DNA of 64,000 nt from Saprospira grandis str. Lewin (GTDB lineage Bacteria > Bacteroidota > Bacteroidia > Chitinophagales > Saprospiraceae), in assembly GCF_000250635.1 (NCBI RefSeq), contig NC_016940.1, positions 1,160,995 to 1,224,994 of the forward strand, written 5' to 3'. The number at the start of each line of letters is the position of its first letter. Within the stretch, counting starts at the first letter, position 1. A model generated the notes under the pieces. That model worked only from the letters and a program-made list of their open reading frames with translations, had not been told where the DNA came from and did no database searches. Both the position numbers and the translations under genes were made by a program. Below, piece after piece: positions 2,712-58,345 of the stretch.

Positions 2712-3473
2712 ATGCATCGACTAATTATCTTTCTCCTCAGCTTTTTTCCGCTTCTTCTATTGGCCCAAATCAATACGGATCGCCCCACCCAGTCCGAGAG
2801 TTCGGCCCTTGTTTTGCCCAAGCAACTACAGCTAGAGCTGGGCAGTAGCTGGCAGCAAGCCCCCGATTTACAGGCCTATCAATTGCCTGGTTTTTCTTGG
2901 CGCTACGGCCTCATTAAAGGCTTAGAATTGCGGGCCTTGGGGCAGCTGCAGCACCTTCTGCCCGAGCAAGAGCCAGCAGAAAATCATTGGAAGCTTTCGG
3001 GCCTTCAGCTAGGCACAAAAATGCAGCTTTTTTCTAGCGCTTCTGGAGCTGCCGAAGGGGCTTGGGTCAGCCAAATAGCCCTTCCTATCCAGACTTATGG
3101 GGGAGCGAGCAACTGGGCCTGGACCAACAAATTGGCCTTTAGCCATCAGCTCAATAGCCGACACAATTTGGCCTATAATCTGGGCACTCATTATGCCGAA
3201 GGGGGCCAACATAGCTTTAACTACACCCTTTGCTGGTCCTATAGTTTGGCCAAGGGTTGGACCGTTTTCCTAGAGCCTTATGGGCAGTTTTCGCCGCAAA
3301 ACAATCCGCAACTTTGGGCCAATACGGGCCTCATTTATTTGCTCAATAACAACCTTCAGCTCGACTGTTCTTTTGGCCTAGACCTACAAACGGCCCAACA
3401 GTATTTTATTGGACTAGGCCTGAGTAGCCGCTTTTTTGCCCCTGCCAAGGCTAAAGAAGAAGAGGAAGACTAG
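2712..3473 (+). CDS. hypothetical secreted/outer-membrane protein
   Basis: N-terminal signal peptide MHRLIIFLLSFFPLLLLAQ; aromatic/Gly/Asn-rich, possible beta-barrel; ends just before T-run plus REP. Confidence 0.5.
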   Translation: MHRLIIFLLSFFPLLLLAQINTDRPTQSESSALVLPKQLQLELGSSWQQAPDLQAYQLPGFSWRYGLIKGLELRALGQLQHLLPEQEPAENHWKLSGLQLGTKMQLFSSASGAAEGAWVSQIALPIQTYGGASNWAWTNKLAFSHQLNSRHNLAYNLGTHYAEGGQHSFNYTLCWSYSLAKGWTVFLEPYGQFSPQNNPQLWANTGLIYLLNNNLQLDCSFGLDLQTAQQYFIGLGLSSRFFAPAKAKEEEED

Positions 3474-3475
3474 TT

Positions 3476-3640
3476 GTTTTTTTCTTTTTTGGGGCTGCCC
3501 CGCCCTGCGGGCGGGTCGGGCTGTATCGCAGCTCGCAGCTCTGCTCGGCCCTGCAGGCTTTTTCGCTTCGCTTCAAAAGCCTTGGGTCTGCCGCCTTGCG
3601 GCGGCCCTGCTTTCCATCCCTCAGCCGGGGCAGTTTTCTT
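3476..3640. repeat. REP-like mosaic element, archetypal full copy (forward)
   Basis: T-run, GGGGCTGCCCCGCCCTGCGGGCGGGTCGGGCTG, GCTCGCAGCTCTGCTCGGCCCTGC core, GGCG..CGCC hairpin, TTCCATCCCTCAGCC module. Confidence 0.85.
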
Positions 3641-3679
3641 CGCTCCAATGGCAATTTCTAGCCACAATCTCCCCCTTCT

Positions 3680-4159
3680 ATGCCCTATCTTATTTTTCTT
3701 TCCCTCTTCTTCAGCAGCTCTTTTCTTTTGGCCCAATTGCAGCCTCTACCCGAGGCGGGCGGCCAGTTGGTCCTTCAAAAGGATAGTATTTTTTATATCG
3801 CTCCCAAAGCCAGCTATCTTTATCAAGCAGGCCAATTTATTGCCCTAGACAAGGCCCCAAAAGCGCCCCCCAAGAAGCCTAGTCTGGCCTGGGGCGCCCA
3901 AGAGCGATACATTTTGGACCAAAGCCAAAACTTTCGAGCAGGCTATTGGGCCAAAGATTTGGACCAAAGCGAGGCCCTGCTCGAACAAAAGAAAGCCGAA
4001 AGCTGGCAGAGCTTTCGGCTTTTCCTTCCTCCTTATGAGGATGCTTACATTTATAGCCTAATAGAAAAAGAGAAACAATTGTACCTCTGTCTCTATCTAG
4101 ACGAACAACATTTTTTACAACTTATTGTGGTAGAGCCGCCGCCTCCTTCTCTAAAATAG
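3680..4159 (+). CDS. hypothetical secreted protein
   Basis: signal peptide MPYLIFLSLFFSSSFLLAQ; no known domain. Confidence 0.45.
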   Translation: MPYLIFLSLFFSSSFLLAQLQPLPEAGGQLVLQKDSIFYIAPKASYLYQAGQFIALDKAPKAPPKKPSLAWGAQERYILDQSQNFRAGYWAKDLDQSEALLEQKKAESWQSFRLFLPPYEDAYIYSLIEKEKQLYLCLYLDEQHFLQLIVVEPPPPSLK

Positions 4160-5540
4160 AGCGGTAAGTGCTGGTATCTACACAAAAAGGCATATTGTCC
4201 TGCTTTAGGTACTTATACCCCGCAGTCATATCTGGGTTTGGACCTGCTTTTTTCGTCTTAAAGTCTAGGGCTTCGGCGCAGCCTTGTTCTAATCCAGCAA
4301 TAAAGTTGGCCACTAAGCGGGCTTGCTCTGCTCGGCCTTCCCAGCCTAAGCCCACGGCTTCTACCATGCCCAAAACAAAGAGGTTATCATATTGAGGATG
4401 GAACATATTGAGGTAGAGCTTGGGCGCTCGTTCTTGCCAGTTCAGCTCCTTTTTGTCAATAAAAGGATAATCTAGCTTATAGCCCGTAGCCAACATCAAG
4501 ATATCATACTCTTCCTTTTGGCCATCTTTAAAATGGACCGTTTGCCCCTCAAACTGCTTAATATCTCCACGGATGTTAATATCACCTTGGCCAATATGCT
4601 GTAAAATCAGCGTATTCATTACTGGCCGAGACTCATACACCTTATGGTCTGGGGCAGGAAAACCAAAGTGCTGCAGATCGCCAACTACCCATTTGAGGAG
4701 CTTTCCGCCAATCCATTGCTGTAAAGGACGGGGCAGGCGCCATTTTCCACCTAAGGTATCCGAGGGTTTACCCATAATGTATTTGGGCACAAAATAATAG
4801 CCTCTACGAACAGAGACATCTACCTTGGGCGAACGGTGGGCCGCATCTACGGCAATATCGCAGCCGCTGTTTCCAGCACCAATAATCAAGACCCGCTTAC
4901 CTTCAAAGATGGCCGCATTTTTATACTGCGAAGAATGCCAAATCTCTCCAGTAAACTCCCCTTTAAACTTGGGGTAATTGGGCTGGGCCAACATGCCATT
5001 GGCAATAATGAGCCCTTTGTAAAGATGGCTAGACCTTTGGCCATTTTGCTCTACTGTTATCTCCCACTGCTCTCCTTTTCTTTCCGTCTTGATCACCTTG
5101 GTCTGAAAAGAATAGTGAGGATAAAGGTCAAACTCCTCGGCATAAGCCTGAAAATAGCTATACATCTCTCGATGAGAAGGGTAATCGGGCCAGTGTTCCG
5201 GCATTGGGAAATCCTTGAATTCCGTTTGCTTTTTAGAAGAAATCAGGTGAGCTGACTCGTAGACAATGCTATTTGGATTATTGATATTCCATAATCCGCC
5301 AACATCTACACCTAGCTCAAAGCCATCAAAAGGAATTCCTTGTTCCTTGAGTGCTTTGGCCGCAGAAATCCCCGAAGGGCCGGCACCAATAATAGCATAC
5401 TTTTCTTCTGTTTGGAGGAGGGATTTGGGGCCTTGGACATTATTCTTGCGATTGGGCACAAATATATAGTTTTGGTGAAAGCGTAAAATGCTAAGCATCT
5501 CGCTATAATAGACTTTCTGCCAATAGATAACGGTTTTCAA
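4122..5540 (-). CDS. flavin-containing monooxygenase (NADPH-dependent, FMO/BVMO class)
   Basis: GAGPSG FAD motif, GAGNSG NADPH motif, FKGEFTGEIWHSSQY = FxGxxxHxxxY FMO signature; true start may be Met at 5498. Confidence 0.8.
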   Translation of the reverse strand: MKTVIYWQKVYYSEMLSILRFHQNYIFVPNRKNNVQGPKSLLQTEEKYAIIGAGPSGISAAKALKEQGIPFDGFELGVDVGGLWNINNPNSIVYESAHLISSKKQTEFKDFPMPEHWPDYPSHREMYSYFQAYAEEFDLYPHYSFQTKVIKTERKGEQWEITVEQNGQRSSHLYKGLIIANGMLAQPNYPKFKGEFTGEIWHSSQYKNAAIFEGKRVLIIGAGNSGCDIAVDAAHRSPKVDVSVRRGYYFVPKYIMGKPSDTLGGKWRLPRPLQQWIGGKLLKWVVGDLQHFGFPAPDHKVYESRPVMNTLILQHIGQGDINIRGDIKQFEGQTVHFKDGQKEEYDILMLATGYKLDYPFIDKKELNWQERAPKLYLNMFHPQYDNLFVLGMVEAVGLGWEGRAEQARLVANFIAGLEQGCAEALDFKTKKAGPNPDMTAGYKYLKQDNMPFCVDTSTYRSILEKEAAALPQ

Positions 5541-6769: not shown

Positions 6770-6791
6770 TCATTTTTCGGTTTGATGTAAA

Positions 6792-6816
6792 AGGGAGCTT
6801 AGGCTCCCTTTTTTTT
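6792..6816 (+). terminator. rho-independent terminator
   Basis: agggagc-tta-gctccct stem followed by TTTTTTTT. Confidence 0.75.
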
Positions 6817-6829
6817 GGTCCATTTTTGC

Positions 6830-6985
6830 GCCTAGAGGAGCGAAGCGACTGGCCCAGCGCTGCGGAGGGGTGGCCGAAGGCCAGACCCAAGCCGCCGCAG
6901 GCGGCTGCAGGGCCGAACAGACCTGTGAGCCCCGCAGCATAGCGGCGGCCGAACTAGGCGAAGCCTAGCCGGCCGCGGGCCCCAA
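6830..6985. repeat. REP-like mosaic element (reverse)
   Basis: gcagggccgaacagacctgtgagccccgcagcatagcggcggcc..; 3' module near-identical to 60285-60345. Confidence 0.8.
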
Positions 6986-8310: not shown

Positions 8311-8682
8311 TATTTCTCGCTAATTTAAAGTTGTTCAAAAAATATGCAAAGGGCCAAATTTGTCTTTTGGGCGGCCTTCGCTTCATAAATGCAGCAAAGA
8401 TATAAATTTCTGCAAAGGAAGTTAAGCCCGCCCCTATTTTGCTAGAAAAAAAGCTGAGGAACAAGCGCCAAGCAATCAAAAATCAAAGGCCCGAGCAAAA
8501 CAAGCCTCGGCCCAGTTTATTTCTTCCTGCTCAAAATGACTAAATTCTTTTCCTTACAGCCGCAGGCCCCCGAAAAACAGTTATCCTTGATGAATATTGC
8601 ATAGAAAACAGCTTGTTTTATGAAAATTGCATACGATTTAAGGCTTAAGTTGTAAAACACTATCATTCGTTTCTTTTTTTGG

Positions 8683-8995
8683 GGCTGCCCCGGCCATAGG
8701 CCGGGTCGGGCTGTGTCGTGGCTCGCAGGTCTGCTCGGCCCTGCGGCGCAAAGCGCCTTGGTCTGCGGCTGCGCCGCCCCACTTTCCATCCCTCAGCCGA
8801 TGCAGGCCAGGGCCTGCATAAAAGCGGCAGGCTATCGCCTATTTAATGTAAAGCGGGCCAGGGCCCGCTTTGAATTGGACCAATTTGGCCCAGGCAGCCC
8901 GAGGGATTCCGCAAGGAATCCCGCAGAGGGGTGGCTGGGCGGGTCATCAGTACGGATGAGGAGCGAAGCGAGGAATACCGCTTTGGGCCAACCAA
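8683..8995. repeat. composite REP-like element: forward core copy plus palindromic module B (GGATTCC..GGAATCCC)
   Basis: ggggctgcccc..gctcgcaggtctgctcggccctgc..ttccatccctcagcc then gggattccgcaaggaatcccgcagaggggtggctgggcggg..gatgaggagcgaagcgaggaataccgc. Confidence 0.8.
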
Positions 8996-9027: not shown

Positions 9028-9423
9028 ATGAAAAAAGTAGAAAAAACCGAGGCCCAATGGAGGGCCCAACTTCAGCCAGAAGAGTACCGCATTTTGCGAC
9101 AAGCAGGTACCGAACGCCCCTTTACAGGAGCCTATTACCAAGAAGAGCGAGCTGGCCAATATAGCTGCAAAGCCTGCAATTGGCCCCTTTTTGATGCCCA
9201 ACAGAAATATCATTCGGGCTGTGGCTGGCCCAGCTTCTGGACCGAGCTAGGCAGCGCCAACATCATCCAGCGGCCAGATTATAGCCATGGCATGCAACGC
9301 ATCGAGCTGCTTTGCCCTCAGTGCGAATCGCATTTGGGCCATATCTTTAATGATGGGCCAGCCCCTACGGGCCTTCGCTATTGTATCAATTCGGCTAGCC
9401 TGAACTTTAGCCCCAAAGAATAA
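9028..9423 (+). CDS. msrB: peptide-methionine (R)-S-oxide reductase
   Basis: CKACNWPLF..CGWPSFW..CPQCESHLGHIF..RYCINS SelR/MsrB motifs, 131 aa. Confidence 0.9.
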   Translation: MKKVEKTEAQWRAQLQPEEYRILRQAGTERPFTGAYYQEERAGQYSCKACNWPLFDAQQKYHSGCGWPSFWTELGSANIIQRPDYSHGMQRIELLCPQCESHLGHIFNDGPAPTGLRYCINSASLNFSPKE

Positions 9424-9592
9424 GGTCCAAGGAGGCGGCGAAGCCGCCGAAAAGGCGCGCAGCGCCTCGGCTGAGGGGCTGTAGCAGGGCCGCCAAAGGC
9501 GGCAGACCAAAGCGCTGAAAGCGCTGCAGGGCCGAGCAGACCTGCGAGCTGCGCAATGGCCCGACCCAGCCGAAGGCTGGGGCAGCCCCAAA
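9424..9592. repeat. REP-like mosaic element (reverse)
   Basis: ggctgagggg..gcagggccgagcagacctgcgagctgcg..ggggcagcccc. Confidence 0.8.
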
Positions 9593-16989: not shown

Positions 16990-17570
16990 GACCTTTGTTT
17001 TTTCTTTTTTCCTTTTGGGGCCCGCGGCCCAGGCAGGCCTAGGGCCTGCCTGGGCCGCCGCTATGCTGCGCGGCTCGCTGTTACTTGCTTCGCTGCGTCG
17101 GCTCCCGTTGGTCGGGTCGCTCGGCCCATCGCTTTTTCGCTTTGCTCAAAAGCTCGGTCTGGCCTGCGGCCACCGCTGCGCAGCGCTGGGCCGCTCGGCC
17201 TCTTAGCTTGGCCAGTTCTTTCTGCTGCGGCCCCCTTGGCCCCTCCTTTTAAATGGTATTCGTCGCTGCGCTCCTCATCCGTCTATATGTCCCCGCCCAC
17301 CCACCCCTCTACGGGATTCCCTAAGGAATCCCTCGGGATGGCTGGACCAACTCCTACACCTCCTCGCCCACTAAATAGGCGGCTTCGCCGCCTCTGGCCC
17401 AAAGGGACAGAACGGCCTAGTGATGCGGCGGGGTGGCCCAAAGGGCCAGACCCAGGCGGCGCAGCCGCCGCAGGGCCGAGCAGACCTGCGAGCCCCAAAG
17501 CGTAACGGCGCAAGGCGAAGCCGCAGCGCAGGCCCCAACTCCTCCCCTCAGAAAAATAGCGGAAATAAAA
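16990..17570. repeat. ~580-bp composite of REP-like modules: two core copies in opposite orientation flanking a reverse module B
   Basis: ggggcccgcggccc.. at left, module B reverse at 17256-17332, gcagggccgagcagacctgcgagcccc core reverse at ~17480; track ORFs 16954..17505 and 17283..17663 are repeat artefacts. Confidence 0.8.
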
Positions 17571-18721: not shown

Positions 18722-21052
18722 TTACTCAATTCTGGCTACCGTATTGACCGCATCCAAGTTCTTAATCGACATAATAATCTGCTTGAGCTGGTCCTTATTT
18801 TGCACCATCAAACTAATCCGTCCTTCAAAATGACCCTCTAGGCCCTCCATAGAAAATGAACGCATATTGACGCCCAACTCATTGGTAATGATGTTAGACA
18901 ACTGCTGCACCACCCCCATATCATCCATGCCCGTAATCAAGAGATCGGCCACAAAAGAGGTTTCGCCAGACTCTACCCATTCCGCCTTTTTTATCCGATA
19001 GCCATAAGTGGCCTGCATATGCTCGGCATTGGGGCAGGTGGTCCGATGAATTTTTAAGCCATGCTTAGAGGTCACATAAGCAAAAATATCATCGCCCATA
19101 ACGGGATTGCAGCAGGTGGCCAAGGAGTAGGTATAATTGCTGGCATCTTCGCCATCTACCATCAATTTGGGCTTCTTAAACTGCTTGCGACTGGCCAAGG
19201 GACGTAATTTGGGGCCCTTGGGCTTTTCTATCTGTGCAATTTCCTCCTTAGGCGTATCGGCCAACTCTGGGAACAGCTTTCCCTGCTCCTGCCGCAAGAG
19301 CTTAATCTCATTTAAGTTGTACTGCCCCTGATAAATCCCATAATAAAGAGCGGGGCGATTCTCTAGGCCATAGTATTTGACCAGTACGTCTATATTCTCA
19401 TCGGCATCTAGCTTGAGGGTTTTTAGTTTGCGCTCTAGGGTTTCTTTGCCCAGGGCGCCCAACTTCATACGCTCCTCACGGAGCGCCTGACGGATCTTAT
19501 GTCGAGCCCGTCCAGTCTCCACCATCTTCAACCAACCCTTTGAGGGCTTTTGGTTGGGACTGGTCACCACCCTCAATTGGTCGCCATTTCGGAGGCGATA
19601 GCTAAGAGGAACAATCTTTTCGGCCACCTTGACCGCCTTACAATGATAGCCCACCTCCGAGTGAATATCAAAGGCAAAATCTAGGGCCGTGGCTCCTTTA
19701 GGGAAAAAGCGGAGGTCTCCCTTGGGCGTAAATACATAAACCTCCTCGGCAAAAAGGTTTGACTTAAAGCTGTTTAGAAACTCAATGGCATTGGTTTCTG
19801 GATTCTCTAACATTTCTCGGGCTTTGGTCAGCCAGCGTTCAAAGGTACTGCTTTGGCTGGATTTAACGCCCTTGTATTTCCAGTGTGCCGCAAAGCCCAT
19901 TTCGGCAATTTCATCCATGCGCTCCGAGCGAATTTGCACCTCGACAAAGCGGCCCTTGGGCCCCATAACTGTCGTATGCAAAGATTCATAGCCATTGGTC
20001 TTTGGCATAGATACCCAATCTTTTAGGCGTTCGGGCACGGGGGTATAGTAATCGGTAATGATAGAATAGACATTCCAACAGGCGGCCTTTTCTCTTTCAA
20101 TGGGTAAATCTAAAACAATCCGAATAGCAAAGAAATCATATATCTCCTCAAAGGCCAGTTGCTTCTTCTTGAGTTTGTTGTTAATGGAAGAAATGGATTT
20201 GGCTCGGCCAAAGATGCGGGCCTTATAGCCTGCAGCTTCTACAGCCTTGCGCACGGGAGCAATAAAATCTTCAATATAAGCCTCTCGCTCGTCCTTCGTT
20301 TCTTGTAATTTCTTGACAATGTCTTGGTACTCTGTAGGCTCGATGATCTTCATGACCAAATCTTCCATTTCCGTCTTTATGGAGTAGAAACCCAGACGGT
20401 GGGCCAAAGGCGCATAGATATAAGAGGTTTCTGAAGCAATCTTTAGCTGCTTATGATGAGGCATAGAGCCTAGGGTCCGCATATTATGTAGGCGGTCCGC
20501 CATCTTAATGAGCACCACCCGCACATCCTTGGCAATGGTCAAGAGGATCTTTTTAAAGTTTTCGGCCTGTGGGCTACTCATCTTATCGCCCTGTACATTA
20601 TTGGCATTGGCAATACCCGAAAACTTAGTCAGGCCATCTACAATAGAACTTACCTTTTGGCCAAACAATAACCGAATTTGGGCTAAATTAACCTCCGTAT
20701 CTTCTACCACATCATGCATAAGGGCCGCTTTGATAGAGCGAGGGGCCAAGCCTAACTCATCGGCACAAATACGGGCTACCTCTATGGGATGCAGAATATA
20801 AGGCTCTCCTGACTTTCGTCTTTGGCCCGCATGCGCCCGAAAAGCTAAAGTAAAAGCCAGACGCATTTCTCTTTCTTCCTCTGGCGGATAATCCATCCGC
20901 AGGCTGCCTAACAAATGCTCAAAGGCCGCATAGACTTCTTTTTCTTCATCGGCATTGAGATCGGTGGTTGGGTCTGGCAAATTTAAAGGCGCCAGCTTTT
21001 CTTCTATATAGTCTACCATAGTCTTATTCTTTTTATACAGGGCCCTACTCAT
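18722..21052 (-). CDS. relA: bifunctional (p)ppGpp synthetase/hydrolase RelA/SpoT-family
   Basis: 776 aa; HD hydrolase motif HDVVEDT, RelA/SpoT synthetase region, C-terminal TGS and ACT regions. Confidence 0.9.
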   Translation of the reverse strand: MSRALYKKNKTMVDYIEEKLAPLNLPDPTTDLNADEEKEVYAAFEHLLGSLRMDYPPEEEREMRLAFTLAFRAHAGQRRKSGEPYILHPIEVARICADELGLAPRSIKAALMHDVVEDTEVNLAQIRLLFGQKVSSIVDGLTKFSGIANANNVQGDKMSSPQAENFKKILLTIAKDVRVVLIKMADRLHNMRTLGSMPHHKQLKIASETSYIYAPLAHRLGFYSIKTEMEDLVMKIIEPTEYQDIVKKLQETKDEREAYIEDFIAPVRKAVEAAGYKARIFGRAKSISSINNKLKKKQLAFEEIYDFFAIRIVLDLPIEREKAACWNVYSIITDYYTPVPERLKDWVSMPKTNGYESLHTTVMGPKGRFVEVQIRSERMDEIAEMGFAAHWKYKGVKSSQSSTFERWLTKAREMLENPETNAIEFLNSFKSNLFAEEVYVFTPKGDLRFFPKGATALDFAFDIHSEVGYHCKAVKVAEKIVPLSYRLRNGDQLRVVTSPNQKPSKGWLKMVETGRARHKIRQALREERMKLGALGKETLERKLKTLKLDADENIDVLVKYYGLENRPALYYGIYQGQYNLNEIKLLRQEQGKLFPELADTPKEEIAQIEKPKGPKLRPLASRKQFKKPKLMVDGEDASNYTYSLATCCNPVMGDDIFAYVTSKHGLKIHRTTCPNAEHMQATYGYRIKKAEWVESGETSFVADLLITGMDDMGVVQQLSNIITNELGVNMRSFSMEGLEGHFEGRISLMVQNKDQLKQIIMSIKNLDAVNTVARIE

Positions 21053-21368
21053 CCAAAAATTTGATCCTCGGCCACCGCTTGCTCTTTTGCTTTCTTCTTT
21101 TAATAGAAAATCATTCTATTACAGAAAAAAATGCCCCTGCCCTAGCCCATAGGCTAAGCAGAGCACAACAACAAAAAAGAAATTTAGAGAGAAGCCCTTG
21201 CTTTTCCAAACTTTTTTAAGCTATTGTCTGCATCACTATATATTATATGTATAAAAGAAATAGGAAGCACTGCTTTTTTGCCCCTAAGTCAATTGATGAA
21301 TAAAGCAGAAAGCTCTTTTTATCAGCGGACTAGCATCCCTTAGGCTAAAAACAAGGCGCCAGAGGCCT

Positions 21369-21665
21369 CTGGATTGTTACATTTAACCGTGGGGATTCCC
21401 CACAGCCATCTGGATTGTTACATTTAACCGTGGGGATTCCCCACAGCCATCTGGATCGTTACATTTAACCGTGGGGATTCCCCACAGCCATCTGGATCGT
21501 TACATTTAACCGTGGGGATTCCCCACAGCCATCTGGATTGTTACATTTAACCGTGGGGATTCCCCACAGCCATCTGGATTGTTACATTTAGCCGTGGGGA
21601 TTCCCCACAGCCATCTGGATCGTTACATTTAGCCGTGGGGATTCCCCACAGCCATCTGGATCCTT
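21369..21665. repeat. tandem array, 41-bp unit x ~7.2, each unit containing palindrome GTGGGGA-T-TCCCCAC
   Basis: ctggattgttacatttaaccgtggggattccccacagccat repeated head-to-tail with point variants (gattg/gatcg, aacc/agcc) in AT-rich intergenic region. Confidence 0.95.
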
Positions 21666-21841: not shown

Positions 21842-22825
21842 ATGGTAGAAACTACTGGCTGGATCAAGACGGAAAACTTCGTCTATACGACCACCAAAGA
21901 AAACAAAAAGAAGATGTACCTTTTAGCGAAGGATCATGTTCACAAATTGACAGAAAAAGCGAGCAGCGATCCTGTCATTCAAGACATCTTGAACTTTATT
22001 CTTCCTGCCTATGAGGACTTTCTTCTTCAGTATCGTAAGAATACGGTAGAGAGAAGAGACTATCAGCAGAAAACAGCAACATTTAAGTCCCTGATTGCTC
22101 AATTGTCTGGCGTTGAAATTCGCCGCTGGGATGTTGAAATTCAGATGACCTATGATATTGTTACCAATGATTACCGTCTATTTCTTCCCTACGGACGAGA
22201 GCCCTTCCAAAAAGGGACCTATGATATGCGCATTGAGGCAGTCATGACCTTGGGAGATTTGTTGAGCGCCGATCCGCAGCTTCAGGGCTTGGGGGCTCGT
22301 GTACTTGCCTTTGGCCAGCAGCTAGATGATCTTCGTGGCCAGCAGCAGGGAGTAGAAGGTAATAACGATGACAATGTAGATGATTTGGAAGCCAAGCGTG
22401 AAGAGCTCGCTATTATACTTTATGGTGCTTTTGCTCGCCTATTGGCCCATTATTATCGTACGCCCAAGCGGGTAGATAACTTTTATGAGCTCAAGTATTT
22501 CCGCCGCAGCCGAAATAGCAGCCCAGAGCAAGAAGAAGAAAACGACAACTTTAGCAACTTTGAAGTGGCCCTAAGTCCTGGCAGCAGCCAGCAGCAACTA
22601 GAGGGCCTACTTATTGGTGGCGAGCGCTTGCGTTTGCAGCATATTAGCGGAGAGCCCGTCTTGTACTACTTCTTGGTTAATTCTAGCGATAGCCCAGGCC
22701 AACAGTATGAGTTGCAGCCCAACCAAAGCGTTGAAGTGATTGTCCCGCTTGGCCATCGTCTTATTGTGCTAGAGAATCCTAGCCGCCAAGACAGCCTTGT
22801 CGAGATTGAGCTACTGCCTAGCTAG
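21842..22825 (+). CDS. hypothetical protein (327 aa) in AT-rich island
   Basis: long ORF, no domain recognised; followed by hairpin terminator. Confidence 0.5.
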   Translation: MVETTGWIKTENFVYTTTKENKKKMYLLAKDHVHKLTEKASSDPVIQDILNFILPAYEDFLLQYRKNTVERRDYQQKTATFKSLIAQLSGVEIRRWDVEIQMTYDIVTNDYRLFLPYGREPFQKGTYDMRIEAVMTLGDLLSADPQLQGLGARVLAFGQQLDDLRGQQQGVEGNNDDNVDDLEAKREELAIILYGAFARLLAHYYRTPKRVDNFYELKYFRRSRNSSPEQEEENDNFSNFEVALSPGSSQQQLEGLLIGGERLRLQHISGEPVLYYFLVNSSDSPGQQYELQPNQSVEVIVPLGHRLIVLENPSRQDSLVEIELLPS

Positions 22826-24811: not shown

Positions 24812-25040
24812 TGATTTGGGGCTGCCCCGCCCTGCGGGCGGGTCGGGCTGTCTCGCAGCTCGCTGTTCGCTCGGCCCTGCGCGGGCTGCGCCCGCTGGGT
24901 CTGGCCTTCGGCCACTGCTGCCCATCCCTCAGCCTCTGCGGCTAAAGCCGCAGCCAAGCGGCATAGCGCTTTGCGCTATTGGCTAAGATGGCGGGCTGGG
25001 GCCCGCCATATCGGCGGCTTCGCCGCCTCTTTGGACCAAA
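24812..25040. repeat. REP-like mosaic element (forward) with extra 3' hairpin modules
   Basis: ttggggctgccccgccctgcgggcgggtcgggctgtctcgcagctcgctgttcgctcggccctgc..cccatccctcagcc. Confidence 0.85.
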
Positions 25041-25957: not shown

Positions 25958-26112
25958 TGTGCTGCGTCTAGAGGCGGGCGCAGCCCGCCGGCCTAGCGAT
26001 GGTAGGCAGTGCGGCGCAGCCGCAGACCCAGGCGCTGAAAGCGCCGCAGGGCCGAGCGAATAGCGAGCTGCCGAACGTAGCGCCGACGAGCGAAGCGAGG
26101 CGGAGGCCCCAA
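25958..26112. repeat. REP-like mosaic element (reverse)
   Basis: gcagggccgagcgaatagcgagctgccgaacgtagcgccg..gaggcggaggcccc. Confidence 0.75.
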
Positions 26113-31234: not shown

Positions 31235-31321
31235 CGGAGAGAGCGGGATTCGAACCCGCGGTACCCGTAAAGGCACACACGCTTTCCAGGCGTGCCCGTT
31301 CGACCGCTCCGGCACCTCTCC
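31235..31321 (-). tRNA. tRNA-Ser (GGA)
   Basis: cloverleaf on minus strand: ggagagg acceptor, GGTTCGAATCC T-loop, anticodon loop cTGGAaa, long variable arm. Confidence 0.9.
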
Positions 31322-31589: not shown

Positions 31590-31750
31590 GTTTAGGGAGG
31601 GCCGAAGGCCCGACGGCTGAGGGATGGAAAAGGGGGGCCGAAGGCCAGACCAAGCAAAACGAGCGCTAGCGAAGTTTTGCGAAGGGCCGAGCAGACTTGC
31701 GAGCCCTGACACAGCCCGACCCGACCAAAGGGAGGGGCAGCCCCAAAACA
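31590..31750. repeat. REP-like mosaic element (reverse)
   Basis: ggctgagggatggaa..gaagggccgagcagacttgcgagccctgacacagcccgacccgacc..ggggcagcccc. Confidence 0.85.
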
Positions 31751-32944: not shown

Positions 32945-33185
32945 TTACTGTTTTTTGGGGCTGCCCCTTCCGCCGGGTTAAAACCCAGCGCAAAGCGGCA
33001 TCGCTTTGCGAGCTTATACAAAATGAGGGTTAAAACCCTCATGAATTATCGGCCGGGTCGGGCTGTGTCGTGGCTCGCAGGTCTGCTCGGCCCTGCGGGG
33101 CTTTCGCTTCGCTTCAGCCCCTGGGTCTGCGGCTTCGCCGCACCACTTTCCATCCCTCAGCCTGCGGCCCTTCGGGCCTGTAGGA
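32945..33185. repeat. REP-like mosaic element (forward) with ~80-bp internal insertion
   Basis: ttggggctgcccc..[insert gggttaaaaccc..gagggttaaaaccctc]..cgggtcgggctgtgtcgtggctcgcaggtctgctcggccctgc..ttccatccctcagcc. Confidence 0.8.
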
Positions 33186-35475: not shown

Positions 35476-35649
35476 AGTAAATATTTTAGCGTGAAAGCCT
35501 CAAAATACTGCGCTTTTAGGGGATTGGGAAGGCGGGGGCTGTTTTTTATCCCTTAAACTCTGGCTGGGACTATTTAAAATTTTGGGTCTGCCCTTTCCTG
35601 CGCCTAGGGACAAGCCCCTAGGCTAGCTTTTCAGACAGCCCTCTAAAGA

Positions 35650-35821: not shown

Positions 35822-35960
35822 GGCCCGAAGGGCCGCAGGCCTAGCGATGTGGAGGGGTGGCCGAAGGCCAGACCGAGGAGCGGAGCGACGAAGGGCCGAG
35901 CAGACCTGCGAGCCCCGCAACGTAGCGCCGCAAGGCGAAGCCGCAGCGGAGGCCCCAAAG
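35822..35960. repeat. REP-like mosaic element (reverse)
   Basis: gaagggccgagcagacctgcgagccccgcaacgtagcgccgcaaggcgaagccgcagcggaggcccc. Confidence 0.8.
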
Positions 35961-36012: not shown

Positions 36013-36089
36013 TTGGTCGGGATGACTGGACTTGAACCAGCGACCACTCGCCCCCCAGACGAGTACTCTACCAACTGAGCTACATCCCG
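36013..36089 (-). tRNA. tRNA-Pro (GGG), CCA encoded
   Basis: minus-strand cloverleaf: cgggatg acceptor, tagctcagttggtagag D-arm, anticodon stem ctcgt/gcgag with loop cTGGGgg, GGTTCAAGTCC T-loop. Confidence 0.85.
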
Positions 36090-38094: not shown

Positions 38095-38415
38095 TTGGGG
38101 CCTCCGCAGCAAAGCTGCGGCGCTACGTTTCGGGGCTCGCAGGTCTGCTCGGCCCTGCGGCCTGACGGCCTTGGTCTGCGGCTTCGCCGCCCCCCTACAC
38201 ATCGCTAGGCCATGAACGAGCGCAGCCAGCTGCGCCCAGCAGGCGGCAAAGCCGCCGCAAAGGCGCGAAGCGCCTCGGCTGAGGGATGGATAGGGGGGCC
38301 CGCAGGGCCAGACCCAAGTTTTTTGAAGCGAAGCGAAAAAAACTGCAGGGCCGAGCAGACCTGCGAGCCCGGCACAGCCCGACCCAAGGCCGTAGGCCGC
38401 AGGGGCAGCCCCAAA
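38095..38415. repeat. inverted pair of REP-like elements
   Basis: forward partial copy 38095-38200 (gctcgcaggtctgctcggccctgc) and reverse full copy 38205-38415 (ggctgagggatgga..gcagggccgagcagacctgcgagccc..ggggcagcccc). Confidence 0.85.
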
Positions 38416-39119: not shown

Positions 39120-39253
39120 GCACTGTCCCGTCCTGAAAAACTGATACAGAATTTAAAGCAATAAAATTCTGATTAAATACGGGTGAAAAGTTATTCTGGA
39201 AGATTTTGACCTCCTTCAAAAAGGTCAAAAAATCTTACGGAAATAACTTGTTG

Positions 39254-40118
39254 TCAATTTAACAACTCTGGCTTAAGATGATCTTGGGCTAGAGTTGTTT
39301 TCTTTTTATAGCTCTTATATTCGAGCTCTTGTTGTTGGTGCATTTCAGCAGGCGGCATAAATTGACAAGACCAATGTGGCCGCGCTTGGTTGTAAATATC
39401 AATACTTTGAGCCACTATTTTCTTCATCGCATCTAGCCCTAAATGGAAAAAATCTGCAATAAACTCTTGCTTTAATATTCCATTTATTCGCTCTGCTACG
39501 GCATTTGCATAAGGGTCATAAGACTCAGTCATAGAGCAACTTATGCCTAGCTCTTTGAGTACTTGCTGATAATCATTTGAGCAGTACTGAATGCCCCGAT
39601 CAGAATGATGAATCAGCTCTTCGTTAGGATATAGACGACGCTTTGCAGCCTGTTTTAAGGCTCGAATAGAGCCAATACTGCTCAAGCTGTCAGAGACATC
39701 ATATCCCATTATTTGCTTAGAATAAGCGTCTGTGACCAAGGCTAAATACATTGGATTTTCTCTCGTTCCAATGTAAGTAATATCTGAAACCCCAGACTTG
39801 CTCTGGCCGATAAATTTTCAAATCAGCTATCTTGTTCTTATGCTTTCTGTAGTGGTGGAAGGAATTTGTCGTTGTATGATAGTTCTTTCGAGGTCGAACT
39901 AGCAGATTGTTGGCCCGCAAAATAGTAAAAAACTTATCTCGGCCTACTCGCAGAGCCTTCAACTCAGATTGAAGTAAATGGTACAATTTGCGGCCTCCTA
40001 AGCGAGGCATTTTGTTCCGTACTTCTTGAACTAAGGCAACTACTTTTTCTGCCAAACCCTGATTAGATCTATGTTTCGCCTTCGATCTATAGTACTGCTG
40101 ACGATTTATCCCGACCAA
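39254..40118 (-). pseudogene. IS3-family transposase OrfB (DDE/rve) disrupted by 1-bp frameshift
   Basis: split into 133-aa and 165-aa ORFs; cccc at ~39785 vs ccc in intact copy (47640); also one a/t substitution (M vs L). Confidence 0.8.
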
Positions 40119-40138
40119 TCGACATAAGCCACTTAAGC

Positions 40139-40561
40139 TTATTTTTTCTTCTTTTTGGAATTTATCAACTGTTCGGGTAAAGACTTTTTTCTGATTGGAA
40201 TTTCAAACTCTTCTTCCGCTATATCTATCATCATATCAAAAAACAAGGCCTTCTTATCTGCCTGATTTAGCTCCTTTTCCAAGCGACGATTTTTCTTCTC
40301 TAAAAGCTTCAATTGCTGACGCAACTCCATCAATTCTTGTTCTGGACTCTTCTTCATACTTCTTAATTTATAGCTTTTATCGTATTGGCCATGTTTCTCG
40401 ATCCATGTCCGAATTGTACTGTCTCCTTGTATCCCATACTTCCGTTGAGCCGCCCTTAATCCAATCTCGCCATTTTCTACTTCCGACACAACTTGGAGCT
40501 TAAAAGCTAAGGTATAATCTTTTTGCGTCCGCTTAACATACTGACCTTCTTTATTTTCCAT
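40139..40561 (-). CDS. IS3-family transposase OrfA (HTH)
   Basis: 140 aa, identical to 47992-48414; ends ..NSKKKKK over A-rich slippery region. Confidence 0.85.
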   Translation of the reverse strand: MENKEGQYVKRTQKDYTLAFKLQVVSEVENGEIGLRAAQRKYGIQGDSTIRTWIEKHGQYDKSYKLRSMKKSPEQELMELRQQLKLLEKKNRRLEKELNQADKKALFFDMMIDIAEEEFEIPIRKKSLPEQLINSKKKKK

Positions 40562-40693
40562 CTATCTTCTGTTTTTGTTGTATCAGTATATCAGGACAAG
40601 ACACACTGAAGTAGAAAAAGGCTAGTGATTTTTATCGCTAGCCTTTTTTTTGGGCAAAAAAAAACCTCCAAGCCAAAAGCTTGAAGGTTAAAG

Positions 40694-40766
40694 TGGTTTC
40701 GGGCGGGCTCGAACCGCCGACACACGGATTTTCAGTCCGATGCTCTACCAGCTGAGCTACGAAACC
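40694..40766 (-). tRNA. tRNA-Phe (GAA), CCA encoded
   Basis: minus-strand cloverleaf ggtttcgtagctcagctggtagagc..ggacTGAAaatcc..GGTTCGAGCCC..cgaaacca. Confidence 0.9.
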
Positions 40767-46824: not shown

Positions 46825-46965
46825 TTTGGGGCCTCCGCCTCGCTTCGCTCGTCGGCGCTACGTTTCAGGGCTCGCAGGTCTGCTCGGCCCTTCGCCAGCT
46901 TCGCTGGCTCGGTCTGGCCTACGGCCACCCTTGCACATCGCTAGGCCTGCGGCCCTTCGGGCCTG
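46825..46965. repeat. REP-like mosaic element (forward, partial module set)
   Basis: ggggcctccgcctcgcttcgctcgtcggcgctacgtttcagggctcgcaggtctgctcggccc..ggtctggcctacggccacc..catcgctaggcc. Confidence 0.8.
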
Positions 46966-47107
46966 CTATCCGTAGCTTGTCCCGTCCTGAAAAACTGATA
47001 CAGAATTTAAAGCAATAAAATTCTGATTAAATACGGGTGAAAAGTTATTCTGGAAGATTTTGACCTCCTTCAAAAAGGTCAAAAAATCTTACGGAAATAA
47101 CTTGTTG

Positions 47108-47971
47108 TCAATTTAACAACTCTGGCTTAAGATGATCTTGGGCTAGAGTTGTTTTCTTTTTATAGCTCTTATATTCGAGCTCTTGTTGTTGGTGCATTTC
47201 AGCAGGCGGCATAAATTGACAAGACCAATGTGGCCGCGCTTGGTTGTAAATATCAATACTTTGAGCCACTATTTTCTTCATCGCATCTAGCCCTAAATGG
47301 AAAAAATCTGCAATAAACTCTTGCTTTAATATTCCATTTATTCGCTCTGCTACGGCATTTGCATAAGGGTCATAAGACTCAGTCATAGAGCAACTTATGC
47401 CTAGCTCTTTGAGTACTTGCTGATAATCATTTGAGCAGTACTGAATGCCCCGATCAGAATGATGAATCAGCTCTTCGTTAGGATATAGACGACGCTTTGC
47501 AGCCTGTTTTAAGGCTCGAATAGAGCCAATACTGCTCAAGCTGTCAGAGACATCATATCCCATTATTTGCTTAGAATAAGCGTCTGTGACCAAGGCTAAA
47601 TACATTGGATTTTCTCTCGTTCCAATGTAAGTAATATCTGAAACCCAGACTTGCTCTGGCCGATAAATTTTCAAATCAGCTATCTTGTTCTTATGCTTTC
47701 TGTAGTGGTGGAAGGAATTTGTCGTTGTATGATAGTTCTTTCGAGGTCGAACTAGCAGATTGTTGGCCCGCAAAATAGTAAAAAACTTATCTCGGCCTAC
47801 TCGCAGAGCCTTCAACTCAGATTGAAGTAAATGGTACATTTTGCGGCCTCCTAAGCGAGGCATTTTGTTCCGTACTTCTTGAACTAAGGCAACTACTTTT
47901 TCTGCCAAACCCTGATTAGATCTATGTTTCGCCTTCGATCTATAGTACTGCTGACGATTTATCCCGACCAA
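47108..47971 (-). CDS. IS3-family transposase OrfB (rve integrase core, DDE)
   Basis: 287 aa; ..HSDRGIQYCSNDYQ..ESYDPYANAVAERINGILKQEF.. integrase core; likely expressed by -1 frameshift from OrfA. Confidence 0.9.
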   Translation of the reverse strand: MVGINRQQYYRSKAKHRSNQGLAEKVVALVQEVRNKMPRLGGRKMYHLLQSELKALRVGRDKFFTILRANNLLVRPRKNYHTTTNSFHHYRKHKNKIADLKIYRPEQVWVSDITYIGTRENPMYLALVTDAYSKQIMGYDVSDSLSSIGSIRALKQAAKRRLYPNEELIHHSDRGIQYCSNDYQQVLKELGISCSMTESYDPYANAVAERINGILKQEFIADFFHLGLDAMKKIVAQSIDIYNQARPHWSCQFMPPAEMHQQQELEYKSYKKKTTLAQDHLKPELLN

Positions 47972-47991
47972 TCGACATAAGCCACTTAAGC

Positions 47992-48414
47992 TTATTTTTT
48001 CTTCTTTTTGGAATTTATCAACTGTTCGGGTAAAGACTTTTTTCTGATTGGAATTTCAAACTCTTCTTCCGCTATATCTATCATCATATCAAAAAACAAG
48101 GCCTTCTTATCTGCCTGATTTAGCTCCTTTTCCAAGCGACGATTTTTCTTCTCTAAAAGCTTCAATTGCTGACGCAACTCCATCAATTCTTGTTCTGGAC
48201 TCTTCTTCATACTTCTTAATTTATAGCTTTTATCGTATTGGCCATGTTTCTCGATCCATGTCCGAATTGTACTGTCTCCTTGTATCCCATACTTCCGTTG
48301 AGCCGCCCTTAATCCAATCTCGCCATTTTCTACTTCCGACACAACTTGGAGCTTAAAAGCTAAGGTATAATCTTTTTGCGTCCGCTTAACATACTGACCT
48401 TCTTTATTTTCCAT
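47992..48414 (-). CDS. IS3-family transposase OrfA
   Basis: 140 aa HTH protein identical to copy A. Confidence 0.9.
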   Translation of the reverse strand: MENKEGQYVKRTQKDYTLAFKLQVVSEVENGEIGLRAAQRKYGIQGDSTIRTWIEKHGQYDKSYKLRSMKKSPEQELMELRQQLKLLEKKNRRLEKELNQADKKALFFDMMIDIAEEEFEIPIRKKSLPEQLINSKKKKK

Positions 48415-48456
48415 CTATCTTCTGTTTTTGTTGTATCAGTATATCAGGACAAGACA

Positions 48457-48600: not shown

Positions 48601-48675
48601 GCCCCAATTGTTAGGGAATTGTTAAAAATGAAAATAATGTAACAAAATCAAAAAGGGGGAAAGTTCGGTATTTTA

Positions 48676-49130
48676 CCGAACTAGTTCAGCTCCAGACCGA
48701 AGCAGTTCACCTCCAGACCGAACTAGTTTACCTCCAGACCGAAGCAGTTTACCTCCAGACCGAACTAGTTTACCTCCAGACCAAACTAGTTTACCTCCAG
48801 ACCAAACTAGTTCAGCTCCAGACCAAACTAGTTCACCTCCAGACCGAACTAGTTCAGCTCCAGACCGAACTGGTTCACCTCCAGACCGAAGCAGTTCACC
48901 GCCAGACCGAACTAGTTCACCGCCAGACCGAAGCAGTTTACCTCCAGACCGAACTGGTTCACCTCCAGACCGAAGCAGTTCACCTCCAGACCGAACTAGT
49001 TCACCTCCAGACCAAACTAGTTCAGCTCCAGACCAAACTAGTTCACCTCCAGACCAAACTAGTTCACCTCCAGACCAAACTAGTTCACCTCCAGACCAAA
49101 CTAGTTCACCTCCAGACCGAAGCAGTTCAC
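48676..49130. repeat. minisatellite: 21-bp unit x ~22 (CTCCAGACCGAACTAGTTCAC and variants)
   Basis: head-to-tail repeats with alternating GAACTAGTTC (10-bp palindrome) and GAAGCAGTT variants; track ORF 48673..49182 (SGGELVW heptads) lies on it. Confidence 0.95.
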
Positions 49131-49204
49131 GGGACTGTTCAGGATTTTGTGTATCCAGATAGGCAACAAAAAGGGCAAGCAAAAAATGTTAAACAAAAAA
49201 GCCC

Positions 49205-50564: not shown

Positions 50565-50900
50565 ATGCGGTGGACAGGCGGCGAAGCCGCCGCAGGCTGA
50601 GGGATGGACAGCAGTGGCCGTCAGGCCAGACCCAGCCGCCGCAGGCGGCGCAGGGCCGAGCGAAGAGCGAGCTGCGAAACAGCCCGACCCGACCGCAGGG
50701 AGGGGCAGCCCCAAAATAGCAGCGAGCTGCGACAACCAGCCCCAAAGGGGCGCCAGTTCGATGACCAAGGGGAATAAACAGCCCGACCCGACCGCAGGGA
50801 GGGACAGCCCCAAAATAGCAGCGAGCTGCGACAACCAGCCCCAAAGGGGCGCCAGTTCGACAACCGAAGGGCGTAGCGGCAGCCCCAAAATAGCCGCATA
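50565..50900. repeat. REP-like element (reverse) followed by tandem duplication of a ~95-bp module
   Basis: ggctgagggatggacag..gcagggccgagcgaagagcgagctgcg then aacagcccgacccgaccgcagggaggg(g/a)cagccccaaaatagcagcgagctgcgacaaccagccccaaaggggcgccagttcga twice (50681-50775, 50776-50870). Confidence 0.85.
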
Positions 50901-54636: not shown

Positions 54637-54973
54637 CCCCCATCTTCTCACGTATATCCTTAGCCTAATCAGCCTATTTTATTATGCTTCTCTTGCCCCT
54701 AAACACAGCAAGAATGCCTTGCTATGGGCGGCTTTTGGCTTTCTTTTTCAGACAGGCCTCTCTCTCCTTTTCATCCTATTCAGTAAGGTATTTATCGCCC
54801 TATTCAAAATCCTTTCTTGGCCCATCAATGATTATTGGGCGATTGGCCTGCTCCTTCTCCCCCTAATCGCCTGCGTCCTTAGCCTTAAGCTAGCCCCTTC
54901 TTTTGTTGCGCCCCAAGCAAAAAGCCCCGCTCCTTCCTCCTCCAATTCAGATATTCTAGATGCGGATATTTAG
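54623..54973 (+). CDS. small 3-TM membrane protein, paralog 4 (C-terminal SDILDADI)
   Basis: 116 aa; KNALLWAAFGFLFQTGL; overlaps paralog 3 by 14 nt. Confidence 0.55.
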   Translation: MNAISPHLLTYILSLISLFYYASLAPKHSKNALLWAAFGFLFQTGLSLLFILFSKVFIALFKILSWPINDYWAIGLLLLPLIACVLSLKLAPSFVAPQAKSPAPSSSNSDILDADI

Positions 54974-55140
54974 GGGCCCGCGGCCGCCCTTTATAAGGGG
55001 GGCGGCCGCCGCTAGGCTCCGCCGCTCGCAGGGCTGCTCGGCCCTGCAGCGCTTTCAGCGCTTTGGTCTGGCCCTTCGGGCCACGGCTGCGCAGCGCTGG
55101 GCCATTTGGCCCTGCGGGCCAAGGGGGCTTCGCCCCCTAG
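54964..55140. repeat. REP-like mosaic element (forward, variant 5' module)
   Basis: ggggcccgcggccgccc..gctcgcagggctgctcggccctgcagcgctttcagcgctttggtctggcccttcgggccac.. Confidence 0.8.
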
Positions 55141-58189: not shown

Positions 58190-58345
58190 TCTTTTTGGGG
58201 CTGCCCCGCCCTGCGGGCGGGTCGGGCTGTCCGCAGCTCGCTGCTCGCTCGGCCCTGCGGCGGCTTTGCCGCCTAGGTCTGCCGCCTTCGGCGGCCCTGC
58301 TCTCATCCCTCAGCCGAGGCGCTTCGCGCCTGCAAAACGCAGTTG
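58190..58345. repeat. REP-like mosaic element (forward)
   Basis: ttggggctgccccgccctgcgggcgggtcgggctgtccgcagctcgctgctcgctcggccctgc..ctcatccctcagcc. Confidence 0.85.

Follow-up and report, generated by a model that had tools for sequence, protein, structure and literature searches.

The 64,000-nucleotide (nt) stretch of the genome of the marine bacterium Saprospira grandis str. Lewin analysed here (contig NC_016940.1, positions 1,160,995 to 1,224,994 of the forward strand; the whole stretch is called the window below) carries many copies of a GC-rich intergenic repeat. We are highly confident that these copies belong to a new, very dense family of structured repeats of the Saprospiraceae, in which the structure is constrained at the level of DNA. 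Neighbouring copies lie on alternating strands, a pattern that is accounted for by no known repeat family. The explanation that we prefer, with about an equal chance of being right or wrong, is an old, high-copy, non-autonomous, two-ended palindromic DNA element family that is maintained by ectopic recombination. The family is apparently previously undescribed: no published description of these repeats was found, a passing mention in the S. grandis genome papers (PMC3368406, PMC3387799) being possible.

With up to three mismatches allowed, the window contains 15 occurrences of the repeat's 24-nt core, GCTCGCAGGTCTGCTCGGCCCTGC, compared with 0 expected from shuffles. A covariance model trained solely on 53 copies of another strain was then run over the window and returned 20 full-length matches (E 8e-22 to 5e-10) and two to three fragments, located at 1-45, 50763-50811 and, doubtfully, 35584-35636. 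An earlier note on this DNA, made from the letters alone, had counted about 20 copies, and every interval that it named does contain at least one; in three of these intervals (16990-17570, 38095-38415 and 50565-50900) there is a second copy or an additional fragment. The high GC content that it reported was also recovered (0.64-0.78 in the copies, about 0.47 in the window). Other parts of the description have to be revised. The repeat exists, but the unit proper spans 115-140 nt and not 150-230 bp, a figure reached because the T-run and extra tail-side hairpins were counted in. The core, described as invariant, has a second common form, CTCGCT(G/A)TTCGCTCGGCCCTGC, in about a quarter of the copies. 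Most intergenic gaps larger than 150 nt are occupied, although at about 18 of 28, or two thirds, "almost every" was an overstatement. The reported abutment on stop codons applies to the head side only, which tends to adjoin gene ends (median 40 nt). Copies inside called genes are rare (6 of 238).

The family extends well beyond the window. One genome per species was scanned with an exact 22-nt core over 8-kb stretches. At least 120 stretches carry the 22-mer; among the matches listed, 115 are tiles of S. grandis DSM 2844 and the remaining five come from four related metagenome-assembled genomes (MAGs) of Saprospiraceae or Lewinellaceae. A scan of metagenomes yielded at least 120 further stretches, and nearly all of the listed ones belong to one sample holding a Saprospira-like species that is about 82% identical to the window, referred to here as the second species. 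Orthologous stretches of the window and DSM 2844 are 92-96% identical. A search for the core in viral contigs gave no match. The repeat is found throughout the DSM 2844 tiles and the second species rather than in the window alone, that is, as a genome-wide family. The density is about 0.3 copies per kb (0.31 in the window, 0.33 in the second species), which, extrapolated to a genome of 4.4 Mb, would give roughly 1,000-1,400 copies making up 3-4% of its DNA.

Each unit can be read from a head, which follows a run of T, to a tail. When the strands of successive units were compared in the DSM 2844 tiles and the window, 24 of the 180 neighbour pairs typed to subfamily lay on the same strand, whereas 50% would be expected (p = 7e-25); for all neighbour pairs the count was 29 of 192. 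The second species provides independent evidence, with 25 of 195 pairs on the same strand (p = 1e-27), and the same-strand share is about 13% in both species. The rule is strictest at close range. In the tiles and window, same-strand pairs account for 0 of the 30 pairs spaced by 600 nt or less, 1 of the 26 spaced by 600-1500 nt, 5 of the 63 spaced by 1500-3000 nt and 23 of the 73 beyond 3 kb. Within the window itself, alternation holds at 18 of the 20 transitions between model matches, and no degenerate partner was detected when one was sought at the two non-alternating sites. Alternation is independent of flanking gene orientation, of chromosome position and of the subfamily of the arms. There is likewise no replication-linked bias, as 50-60% of copies lie on the plus strand in every 400-kb bin of the DSM 2844 scaffold.

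The two kinds of inverted pair are very unequally spaced, as the following ratios of tail-to-tail to head-to-head pairs indicate:

Up to 600 nt: 28 : 2 in the tiles and window, 41 : 0 in the second species.
600-1500 nt: 20 : 5 in the tiles and window, 24 : 6 in the second species.
1500-3000 nt: 38 : 20 in the tiles and window, 33 : 16 in the second species.
Beyond 3 kb: 13 : 37 in the tiles and window, 8 : 42 in the second species.

Direct (same-strand) pairs at up to 600 nt number 0 in the tiles and window and 1 in the second species. In a tail-to-tail pair the T-run heads point outward, an oligo-T tract is present at both outer ends, and the two copies lie between 40 nt and a few kb apart. 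The enclosed intervals contain no gene in 34 cases, one gene in 31 and two genes in 26; these genes are usually co-directional, on either strand. Nearly every unit is most economically described as one of the two ends of an entity, E(+) ... E(-), whose heads lie outward.

Anchoring and orienting the copies on a shorter motif, GCTCGGCCCTGC, revealed one common layout, and the modular make-up described in the earlier note is supported. The order is an oligo-T tract with a GGGGC head, hairpin A, the 24-nt core, hairpin B, GGTCTG, hairpin C, a short linker and a tail that ends in CAGCC, AGGCC or GGGCC (general form CC(N)NRGCC). Three hairpins of free sequence are separated by fixed single-stranded blocks. 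Most copies have T3-T8 directly before the head, and beyond the tail there are often one to three further small GC hairpins; such extra solitary hairpins occur in 157 of 293 copies. Three subfamilies can be distinguished, in which the differences in the head are complementary to those in the tail: GGGGCCT with TAGGCC (108 copies), GGGGCTG with TCAGCC (88 copies) and GGGGCCC with TGGGCC (30 copies). Mismatched combinations of head and tail are seen in fewer than 10 copies, and a fourth complementary version, GCGUG/CACGC, is present in one Lewinellaceae MAG copy.

RNAalifold predicted eight helices on 53 diverse copies, namely P1 as the terminal stem, hairpin A, a helix of two pairs, the helix P2 of four pairs that closes the inner domain, an invariant two-pair helix within the core, an invariant GGCC/GGUC helix bearing hairpin B, hairpin B itself and hairpin C. 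In this model the head is paired with the tail and the inner domain is closed by the 4-bp P2, so that each unit forms one branched structure. The modelled pairs are formed at 98.1% in the 53 copies. Column shuffles give 77.7%, none of the 500 being as high as the real alignment, and score 0.122 for covariation where the copies score 0.456; partners slid by one to three columns pair at only 33-63%. Several complementary pair types are present in P1, in helix 55-56/157-158 and in P2; at three of the four P2 positions GC, AU, CG and UA are all seen inside single subfamilies. The result was replicated on 142 second-species copies outside the training set of the model, where 99.0% of pairs are formed compared with 76.4%, in an alignment that was fitted to the model. 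Hairpin B occurs as 186 distinct sequences in 308 copies, nearly all of them perfect palindromes. Most hairpins B and C carry TNC triloops, which are GNA triloops on the opposite strand, and GNA triloops make very stable DNA mini-hairpins. A single unit has no more than the 5-bp head/tail complementarity as a terminal inversion.

Several independent lines of evidence speak for DNA rather than RNA. In hairpin B we counted 1117 Watson–Crick pairs, 3 G.T and 2 A.C; over the whole structure in the second species the numbers were 3712, 12 and 11 among 3,765 pairs. G.T is no more frequent than other mismatches, and there is no strand asymmetry. A bias of wobble pairs favouring the complementary strand, hinted at by the first counts, was not replicated (12 vs 11). 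Since an RNA under structural selection would accept G.U on its own strand, the near absence of wobble points to DNA. In tandem intergenic regions 55 units are sense and 61 antisense, and convergent, divergent and tandem spacers are all occupied. Rfam 15, searched at the gathering threshold and at E up to 1, gave tRNAs and chance matches elsewhere and none on the units. The sRNA role suggested earlier, or any role as a cis-acting RNA, is not supported by these results.

The suggestion of a terminator role fares no better. In an intrinsic terminator a U-run follows the GC-rich hairpin on the transcribed strand, whereas in the units the T-run is on the 5' side of the hairpins and the complementary strand closes with an A-run. 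Neighbouring genes have canonical terminators of their own, e.g. at 6789-6812 and 7030-6993, the T-run of the latter continuing directly into the head of the next unit. In a terminator scan the units hardly register, strong sites being found beside the units and not within them. A model in which the units target terminators, with doublets mainly between convergent genes and heads facing gene 3' ends, was also rejected, as 8 of 25 doublets are between convergent genes and heads face 3' ends in 109 cases and 5' ends in 96. Because the pairs are Watson–Crick only, the strands are equivalent and orientation is independent of transcription, we place the constraint on DNA rather than RNA, and we conclude with high confidence that the unit is a DNA-level element and neither an RNA nor a terminator.

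The copies and fragments in the window are as follows; scores are those of the covariance model.

1-65, plus: partial copy truncated by the window start (inner domain and tail CATCGCTAGGCC); model match 1-45, equal to model positions 47-102; tail motif at 54-65.
765-896, minus: full chimeric copy, type-2 head and hairpin A with a type-1 tail; 82.0 bits.
3476-3626, plus: focal copy, type 1 (GGGGCTG...CAGCC), T-run 3476-3490 and unit 3491-3626; 91.7 bits; begins 3 nt past the stop codon of gene 2712-3473.
6851-6983, minus: full copy, type 3, head behind the T-run of the metK terminator hairpin 7030-6993; 85.2 bits.
8681-8798, plus: full copy, type 1, with accessory GC hairpins then extending to about 8995; 102.8 bits.
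9469-9589, minus: full copy, type 1; 90.9 bits; forms with 8681-8798 a tail-to-tail pair around msrB 9028-9423 (Pfam SelR).
17017-17192, plus: full copy, type 3, left arm of a doublet; 58.4 bits.
17414-17536, minus: full copy, type 2, right arm of the doublet; 98.8 bits.
24818-24934, plus: full copy, type 1, second core variant; 89.0 bits; conserved in the second species (L180).
25990-26110, minus: full copy, type 2, second core variant; 97.5 bits.
31615-31744, minus: full copy, type 1; 104.4 bits; one of the two non-alternating places in the window.
32957-33162, plus: full copy, type 1, hairpin A loop interrupted by a 76-nt insertion; 87.0 bits for 33026-33162.
35584-35636, plus: doubtful degenerate fragment; 16.7 bits, E 0.21.
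35838-35956, minus: full copy, type 2; 95.7 bits.
38097-38211, plus: full copy, type 2, left arm of a tail-to-tail doublet; 101.9 bits.
38277-38412, minus: full copy, type 1, right arm of the tail-to-tail doublet; 93.1 bits.
46828-46947, plus: full copy, type 2; 115.3 bits.
50595-50712, minus: full copy, type 1, second core variant; 94.3 bits.
50763-50811, minus: fragment, head and hairpin A, from a 99-nt tandem duplication over 50677-50860; 19.5 bits, E 0.057.
54973-55103, plus: full copy, type 3; 87.9 bits.
58197-58315, plus: full copy, type 1, inner domain differing as a block from DSM 2844; 66.7 bits.
60197-60332, minus: full copy, type 3, hairpin tips changed symmetrically relative to DSM 2844; 72.6 bits.
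62555-62668, plus: full copy, type 2, head behind a terminator-like hairpin and T7; 91.8 bits.

Comparison of orthologous sites indicates that the family is stable in position and evolves by exchange between copies. Five copies could be compared between the window and DSM 2844, and all five are present in both strains. Four of them differ by 1.5-7%, while third codon positions differ by 13.5%. The fifth, 58197-58315, differs by 22% owing to block replacement of its inner domain between identical outer parts. The replaced block runs from the 5' arm of P2 through hairpins B and C to its 3' arm, and P2 has switched coherently between GCAG/CTGC and GTGG/CCAC. In copy 60197-60332 the tips have changed symmetrically, e.g. 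GGCC-TGC-GGCC vs GGCCC-TTC-GGGCC.

The same picture emerges over the larger distance to the second species, where a 15-kb ortholog (L180) keeps the site and strand of four out of four copies. Divergence there is 9.8%, 4.1% and 33.6% at first, second and third codon positions and 26.1% in other intergenic DNA, and two copies without block replacement differ by 8.5-11%. Copies 17414-17536 and 25990-26110, both on the minus strand and 8.5 kb apart, have reciprocally exchanged their inner domains (about 72 nt) relative to L180: the outer parts are 95% identical to their orthologues, whereas the inner domains are 92% and 90% identical crosswise and 70-74% in the orthologous comparison. The genes between the two copies are intact, and the swap requires two conversions or a double exchange. 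In a further 207 kb of cross-species alignments, 34 of 39 units were conserved by a simple pattern test. Seven apparent exceptions were aligned, of which six proved to be conserved copies with variant cores and one a site taken by a different repeat; an eighth flagged case, window copy 17017, had been missed by the pattern because of a 35-nt insertion in its core.

The module shuffling that the earlier note proposed is therefore real, since hairpins and entire inner domains pass between copies. We attribute it to short-patch exchange between the roughly 1,000 copies, for which the conserved linkers provide the anchoring homology; by such exchange hairpins are handed on as ready-made perfect palindromes. 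Exchange among copies can also hold the linkers uniform without selection. We have high confidence that the family is old and positionally stable and that it evolves in this way. Current mobility of the units is doubtful; some 40 copies compared between species at about 82% identity were at unchanged positions.

With moderate confidence we regard the copies as the ends of two-ended, formerly mobile, non-autonomous elements. The functional unit would have two ends, like a MITE (a miniature transposable element with inverted repeats) or a REPIN doublet, with structured repeats of about 120 nt serving as the ends. Its past spread might have been driven by an enzyme that recognised folded (hairpin or cruciform) DNA and set the head beside oligo-T tracts. 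Ectopic gene conversion would afterwards keep the family uniform, and recombination would meanwhile remove direct-repeat neighbours. Such removal would explain alternation, and the exchanges between copies show that recombination does occur; it leaves the shortness of the tail-to-tail intervals unexplained.

Several observations weigh against this explanation. Paired arms are no more alike than random copies (9 of 29 of the same subtype vs 41% expected), unlike what a freshly inserted two-ended transposon would present. Many tail-to-tail pairs enclose housekeeping genes such as msrB, which would be odd as transposon cargo. No mobilising enzyme was found in the approximately 1.9 Mb searched for RayT-like open reading frames (ORFs). 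The strain and species comparisons revealed neither a clean gain or loss of a unit nor an empty site. Past mobility is therefore deduced only from the number of copies, their dispersal and the structure of the family, and the slow evolution of the units and their retention across species could instead mean a host function. Finally, the invariant G.T in the modelled GGCC/GGTC helix is at odds with strict strand symmetry; this helix never varies, hence covariation gives it no support, and it may not exist. Two related ideas were considered and dropped. An impression from 14 cases that doublets are heterotypic, like the Y and Z repeats of bacterial interspersed mosaic elements (BIMEs), was lost on 29 cases (9 of the same type vs 41% expected, p = 0.35). 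As for enclosed genes being cargo, in the tiles and window they have a slightly lower GC content at third codon positions than the other genes (0.481 vs 0.507, p = 9e-4), a difference too weak to carry the idea; length, GC content and codon score are not significantly different.

Among the rivals, the one that survives best, although we consider it rather unlikely, is that the units are architectural or recombination sites adopted by the host. A protein would bind the core and linkers, convergent pairs would be the working form, and selection would keep position and alternation. It would fit the alternation with short tail-to-tail intervals in two species, its independence of gene orientation and arm subtype, and the retention of site and strand across about 18% genome divergence with no turnover seen. 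The linkers are nearly invariant while the hairpins are free, and the 22-nt core is identical in other genera. On the other side, no binding protein or phenotype is known, 34 tail-to-tail intervals enclose no gene at all, and in about 13% of neighbour pairs the strand fails to alternate, no remnant of a partner being detectable. Even in the absence of selection, gene conversion between some 1,000 copies could render the linkers invariant. A more speculative version, which we would not expect to hold, treats the units as orientation-coded DNA sites in convergent pairs that divide the chromosome into hundreds of small bracketed segments, typically of 0-2 genes, acting as anchors or barriers for a DNA-folding or recombination machine or as the ends of a new two-ended cassette with a single transcription unit inside. 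To our knowledge, no chromosome-wide layout of this sort, retained between species, has been reported for a bacterium. The insulator role floated in the earlier note, which had not seen the alternation of orientation, becomes more interesting in its light.

A strict system of repetitive extragenic palindromes (REPs) and BIMEs, in which the hairpins would be REPs mobilised and maintained by a REP-associated tyrosine transposase (RAYT) acting on single-stranded DNA hairpins, appears distinctly unlikely. The REP/BIME-like organisation claimed earlier does stand: the repeats are extragenic and high-copy, variable GC hairpins alternate with conserved linkers, modules are exchanged, and close pairs are inverted with direct pairs almost absent, as is known for REP dimers (PMC3733652). 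The solitary GC hairpins beyond the tail and the lack of target duplication would also agree. Membership of the REP family is another matter. In most REP families more than 90% of the members have the GTAG or CGTC tag at one end of the palindrome (PMC3733652). In Saprospira only 21 of 157 tail-side hairpins have a GTAG within 7 nt, on the 3' side in each case (0 on the 5' side), and none has a CGTC. The unit is a multi-branched fold of 115-140 nt with long-range stems and not a palindrome of 20-40 bp. A genome with REPs should also have a RAYT (Y1 transposase) gene, as a rule with repeats on either side of it. Searches with phmmer and jackhmmer using E. coli RayT found no match at E up to 10 in 13,521 ORF segments (about 1.9 Mb, part of the genome, with a single distant query). 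The database matches of this query were all enterobacterial, and GTAG REPs were not reported from Bacteroidetes in the survey PMC3733652.

The closest known relatives in organisation are nonetheless the REP/BIME systems of Enterobacteria and the REPIN doublets of Pseudomonas. They share with the Saprospira family extragenic GC-rich palindromes in hundreds to thousands of copies, the mosaic of linkers and hairpins, inverted close pairs, rare direct pairs, the lack of target duplication and a tendency of other mobile DNA to insert adjacent to them (PMC3733652, PMC1525189). They differ in that the Saprospira unit has two to three covarying long-range helices where a REP is a single palindrome, and in that its alternation spans kilobases and genes, beyond single clusters. 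GC-rich hairpin clusters of organelles (yeast mitochondrial, Volvox, sponge) appear to be a looser analogue. These are GC-rich hairpin modules in lower-GC spacers that nest, are non-coding, have no known enzyme and apparently evolve at the DNA level (PMC2670323, PMC2800124), but they are mostly simple or double hairpins, whereas the Saprospira unit has a fixed module order, a 24-nt core and a paired orientation.

We find it still less probable that the units are ordinary MITEs of DDE transposons or still-transposing IS200/IS605-derived palindrome-associated transposable elements (PATEs). They are short, non-coding, dispersed and high-copy, fall into subfamilies and form doublets with inverted ends of about 120 nt, and the oligo-T beside the heads could reflect a target preference. 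However, when the outer ends of 153 pairs were compared, direct repeats of at least 3 nt were no commoner than in the shuffled control, so no target-site duplication is seen. The multi-copy proteins in 1 Mb belong to the IS3, IS4/5, RHS, CHAT and LRR families, with transposases of IS3 and IS4/5 DDE types only. The IS3 ends, compared with the head and tail of the unit, are unrelated, and no insertion sequence (IS) with matching ends was found in the part of the genome examined. A DDE-type MITE was rejected on the missing duplication and the lack of a cognate IS in that part of the genome. No insertion polymorphism of units was seen between the strains or species compared. Correia (CREE, from Neisseria), ERIC, RUP and BOX elements, all bacterial MITEs, resemble the Saprospira units as non-coding intergenic repeats of about 100-150 nt that are very dense and have subfamilies, BOX being also modular. 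Correia elements and most MITEs have terminal inverted repeats and a target duplication (TA for Correia), and several elements of the Correia/MITE type are transcribed and act on mRNA. The Saprospira units differ from them in having neither the duplication nor a transcription-linked orientation, and in hairpins that are hypervariable yet perfectly paired. With the ends of IS200/IS605 elements and with PATEs they share folded single-strand signals, the lack of unit-level inverted termini and of duplication and, if the oligo-T is a target rather than part of the element, placement beside a short specific flank. An IS200/IS605 derivative was nevertheless rejected, as the orientation bias relative to the lagging-strand template that is known for such single-strand transposition is absent in all 400-kb bins. 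No Y1 transposase was found in the approximately 1.9 Mb searched, and the Saprospira pairs are inverted on alternating strands.

Least of all do we favour a structured RNA family of many sRNA genes or cis modules that stabilise, process or terminate neighbouring transcripts: the strongly supported branched fold with its many compensatory changes and conserved unpaired blocks, and the intergenic location, frequently within tens of nucleotides of gene ends, would suit it, but wobble as rare as any other mismatch, the lack of an Rfam match, the upstream T-run beside genes with terminators of their own, the indifference of orientation to flanking genes and the alternating strands of neighbours, which have no RNA rationale, make it very improbable.

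Although interspersed palindromic repeats are widespread in bacteria, their origin and function are unsettled, and the Saprospira family adds to them a long, branched, covarying fold constrained at the level of DNA rather than RNA. It shows that repeats can stay at fixed sites across species while swapping hairpin modules, which explains the upkeep of perfect yet hypervariable palindromes. Alternation far beyond chance in two species points to a physical interaction or a co-origin of neighbouring copies. If alternation is functional, the family would offer a tractable bacterial model of chromosome organisation that depends on orientation; if it results from recombination, it would be a gauge of the influence of ectopic exchange on the layout of repeats. 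In practice, the units give rise to spurious ORFs and will mislead gene callers, assemblers and searches for RNA motifs in the Saprospiraceae.

Other repeats and insertions are found around the units. A second, AT-richer repeat family of about 135-160 nt (...TTCTGCGCTTCGGCCAT.CTTTGATAAAAATTT...CATAGCC.TAGCTAT...GAGAAAAAT...) occurs in DSM 2844 at L083 about 4975-5115 and L116 about 3635-3905, exactly after the tail of a main unit. It is absent from the corresponding window junctions 62668/62669 and 33162/33163, which makes it a true insertion polymorphism with a precise target, and more copies follow tails in L005, L016 and L024 of DSM 2844. The 76-nt insertion in the loop of hairpin A (32972-33047) is strain-specific, contains GGGTTAAAACCC, GCAAAGCGGCATCGCTTTGC and GAGGGTTAAAACCCTC hairpins and is lacking in the DSM 2844 alignment. 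Related ...GGTTGAAACC... and ATTGCTTCGCAAT cassettes stand behind tails at DSM 2844 loci such as L003, L012, L014, L019, L024 and L026. The 35-nt insertion at 17082-17116 in the core of copy 17017-17192 is absent from the second-species orthologue. Elsewhere, several units have a truncated core fragment (...GTTGTCGCAGCTCGCTGCT and a T-run) in front of them, which suggests that the core itself is an insertion or breakage point. Another repeat (...CTCCCTATGGTCGTCGAACTGGCGCCCCTATAGGGGC...; L004 about 1700-1850, L016 about 2600-2680) fills in DSM 2844 the site of the second-species main unit L188 8456-8576, and a relative of it lies within the 99-nt tandem duplication 50677-50860 beside unit 50595-50712.

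Two IS3-family elements with rve integrase domains are present in the window, at 39120-40604, with a split transposase ORF, and at 46978-48456. The latter starts 30 nt past the tail of unit 46828-46947, and a third copy of 96% identity is found in DSM 2844 (L039). Three tRNA genes, all on the minus strand, lie at 31235-31321, 36017-36089 and 40694-40766; two of them share spacers with units 31615-31744 and 35838-35956. A tandem array at 21368-21661 consists of 7.2 copies of the 41-nt TCTGGATTGTTACATTTAACCGTGGGGATTCCCCACAGCCA at 98% identity and contains a GTGGGG-ATT-CCCCAC hairpin. It occupies the 790-nt spacer between genes 18722-21052 and 21842-22825, a region that aligns with the second species at only about 70%. 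A 21-nt tandem repeat at 48675-49130 (21.7 copies, 90% identity) lies within ORF 48673-49182 and encodes a protein with a 7-residue repeat, which matches, weakly and under the curated cut-off, a beta-roll of the ice-binding type (Pfam PF21300).

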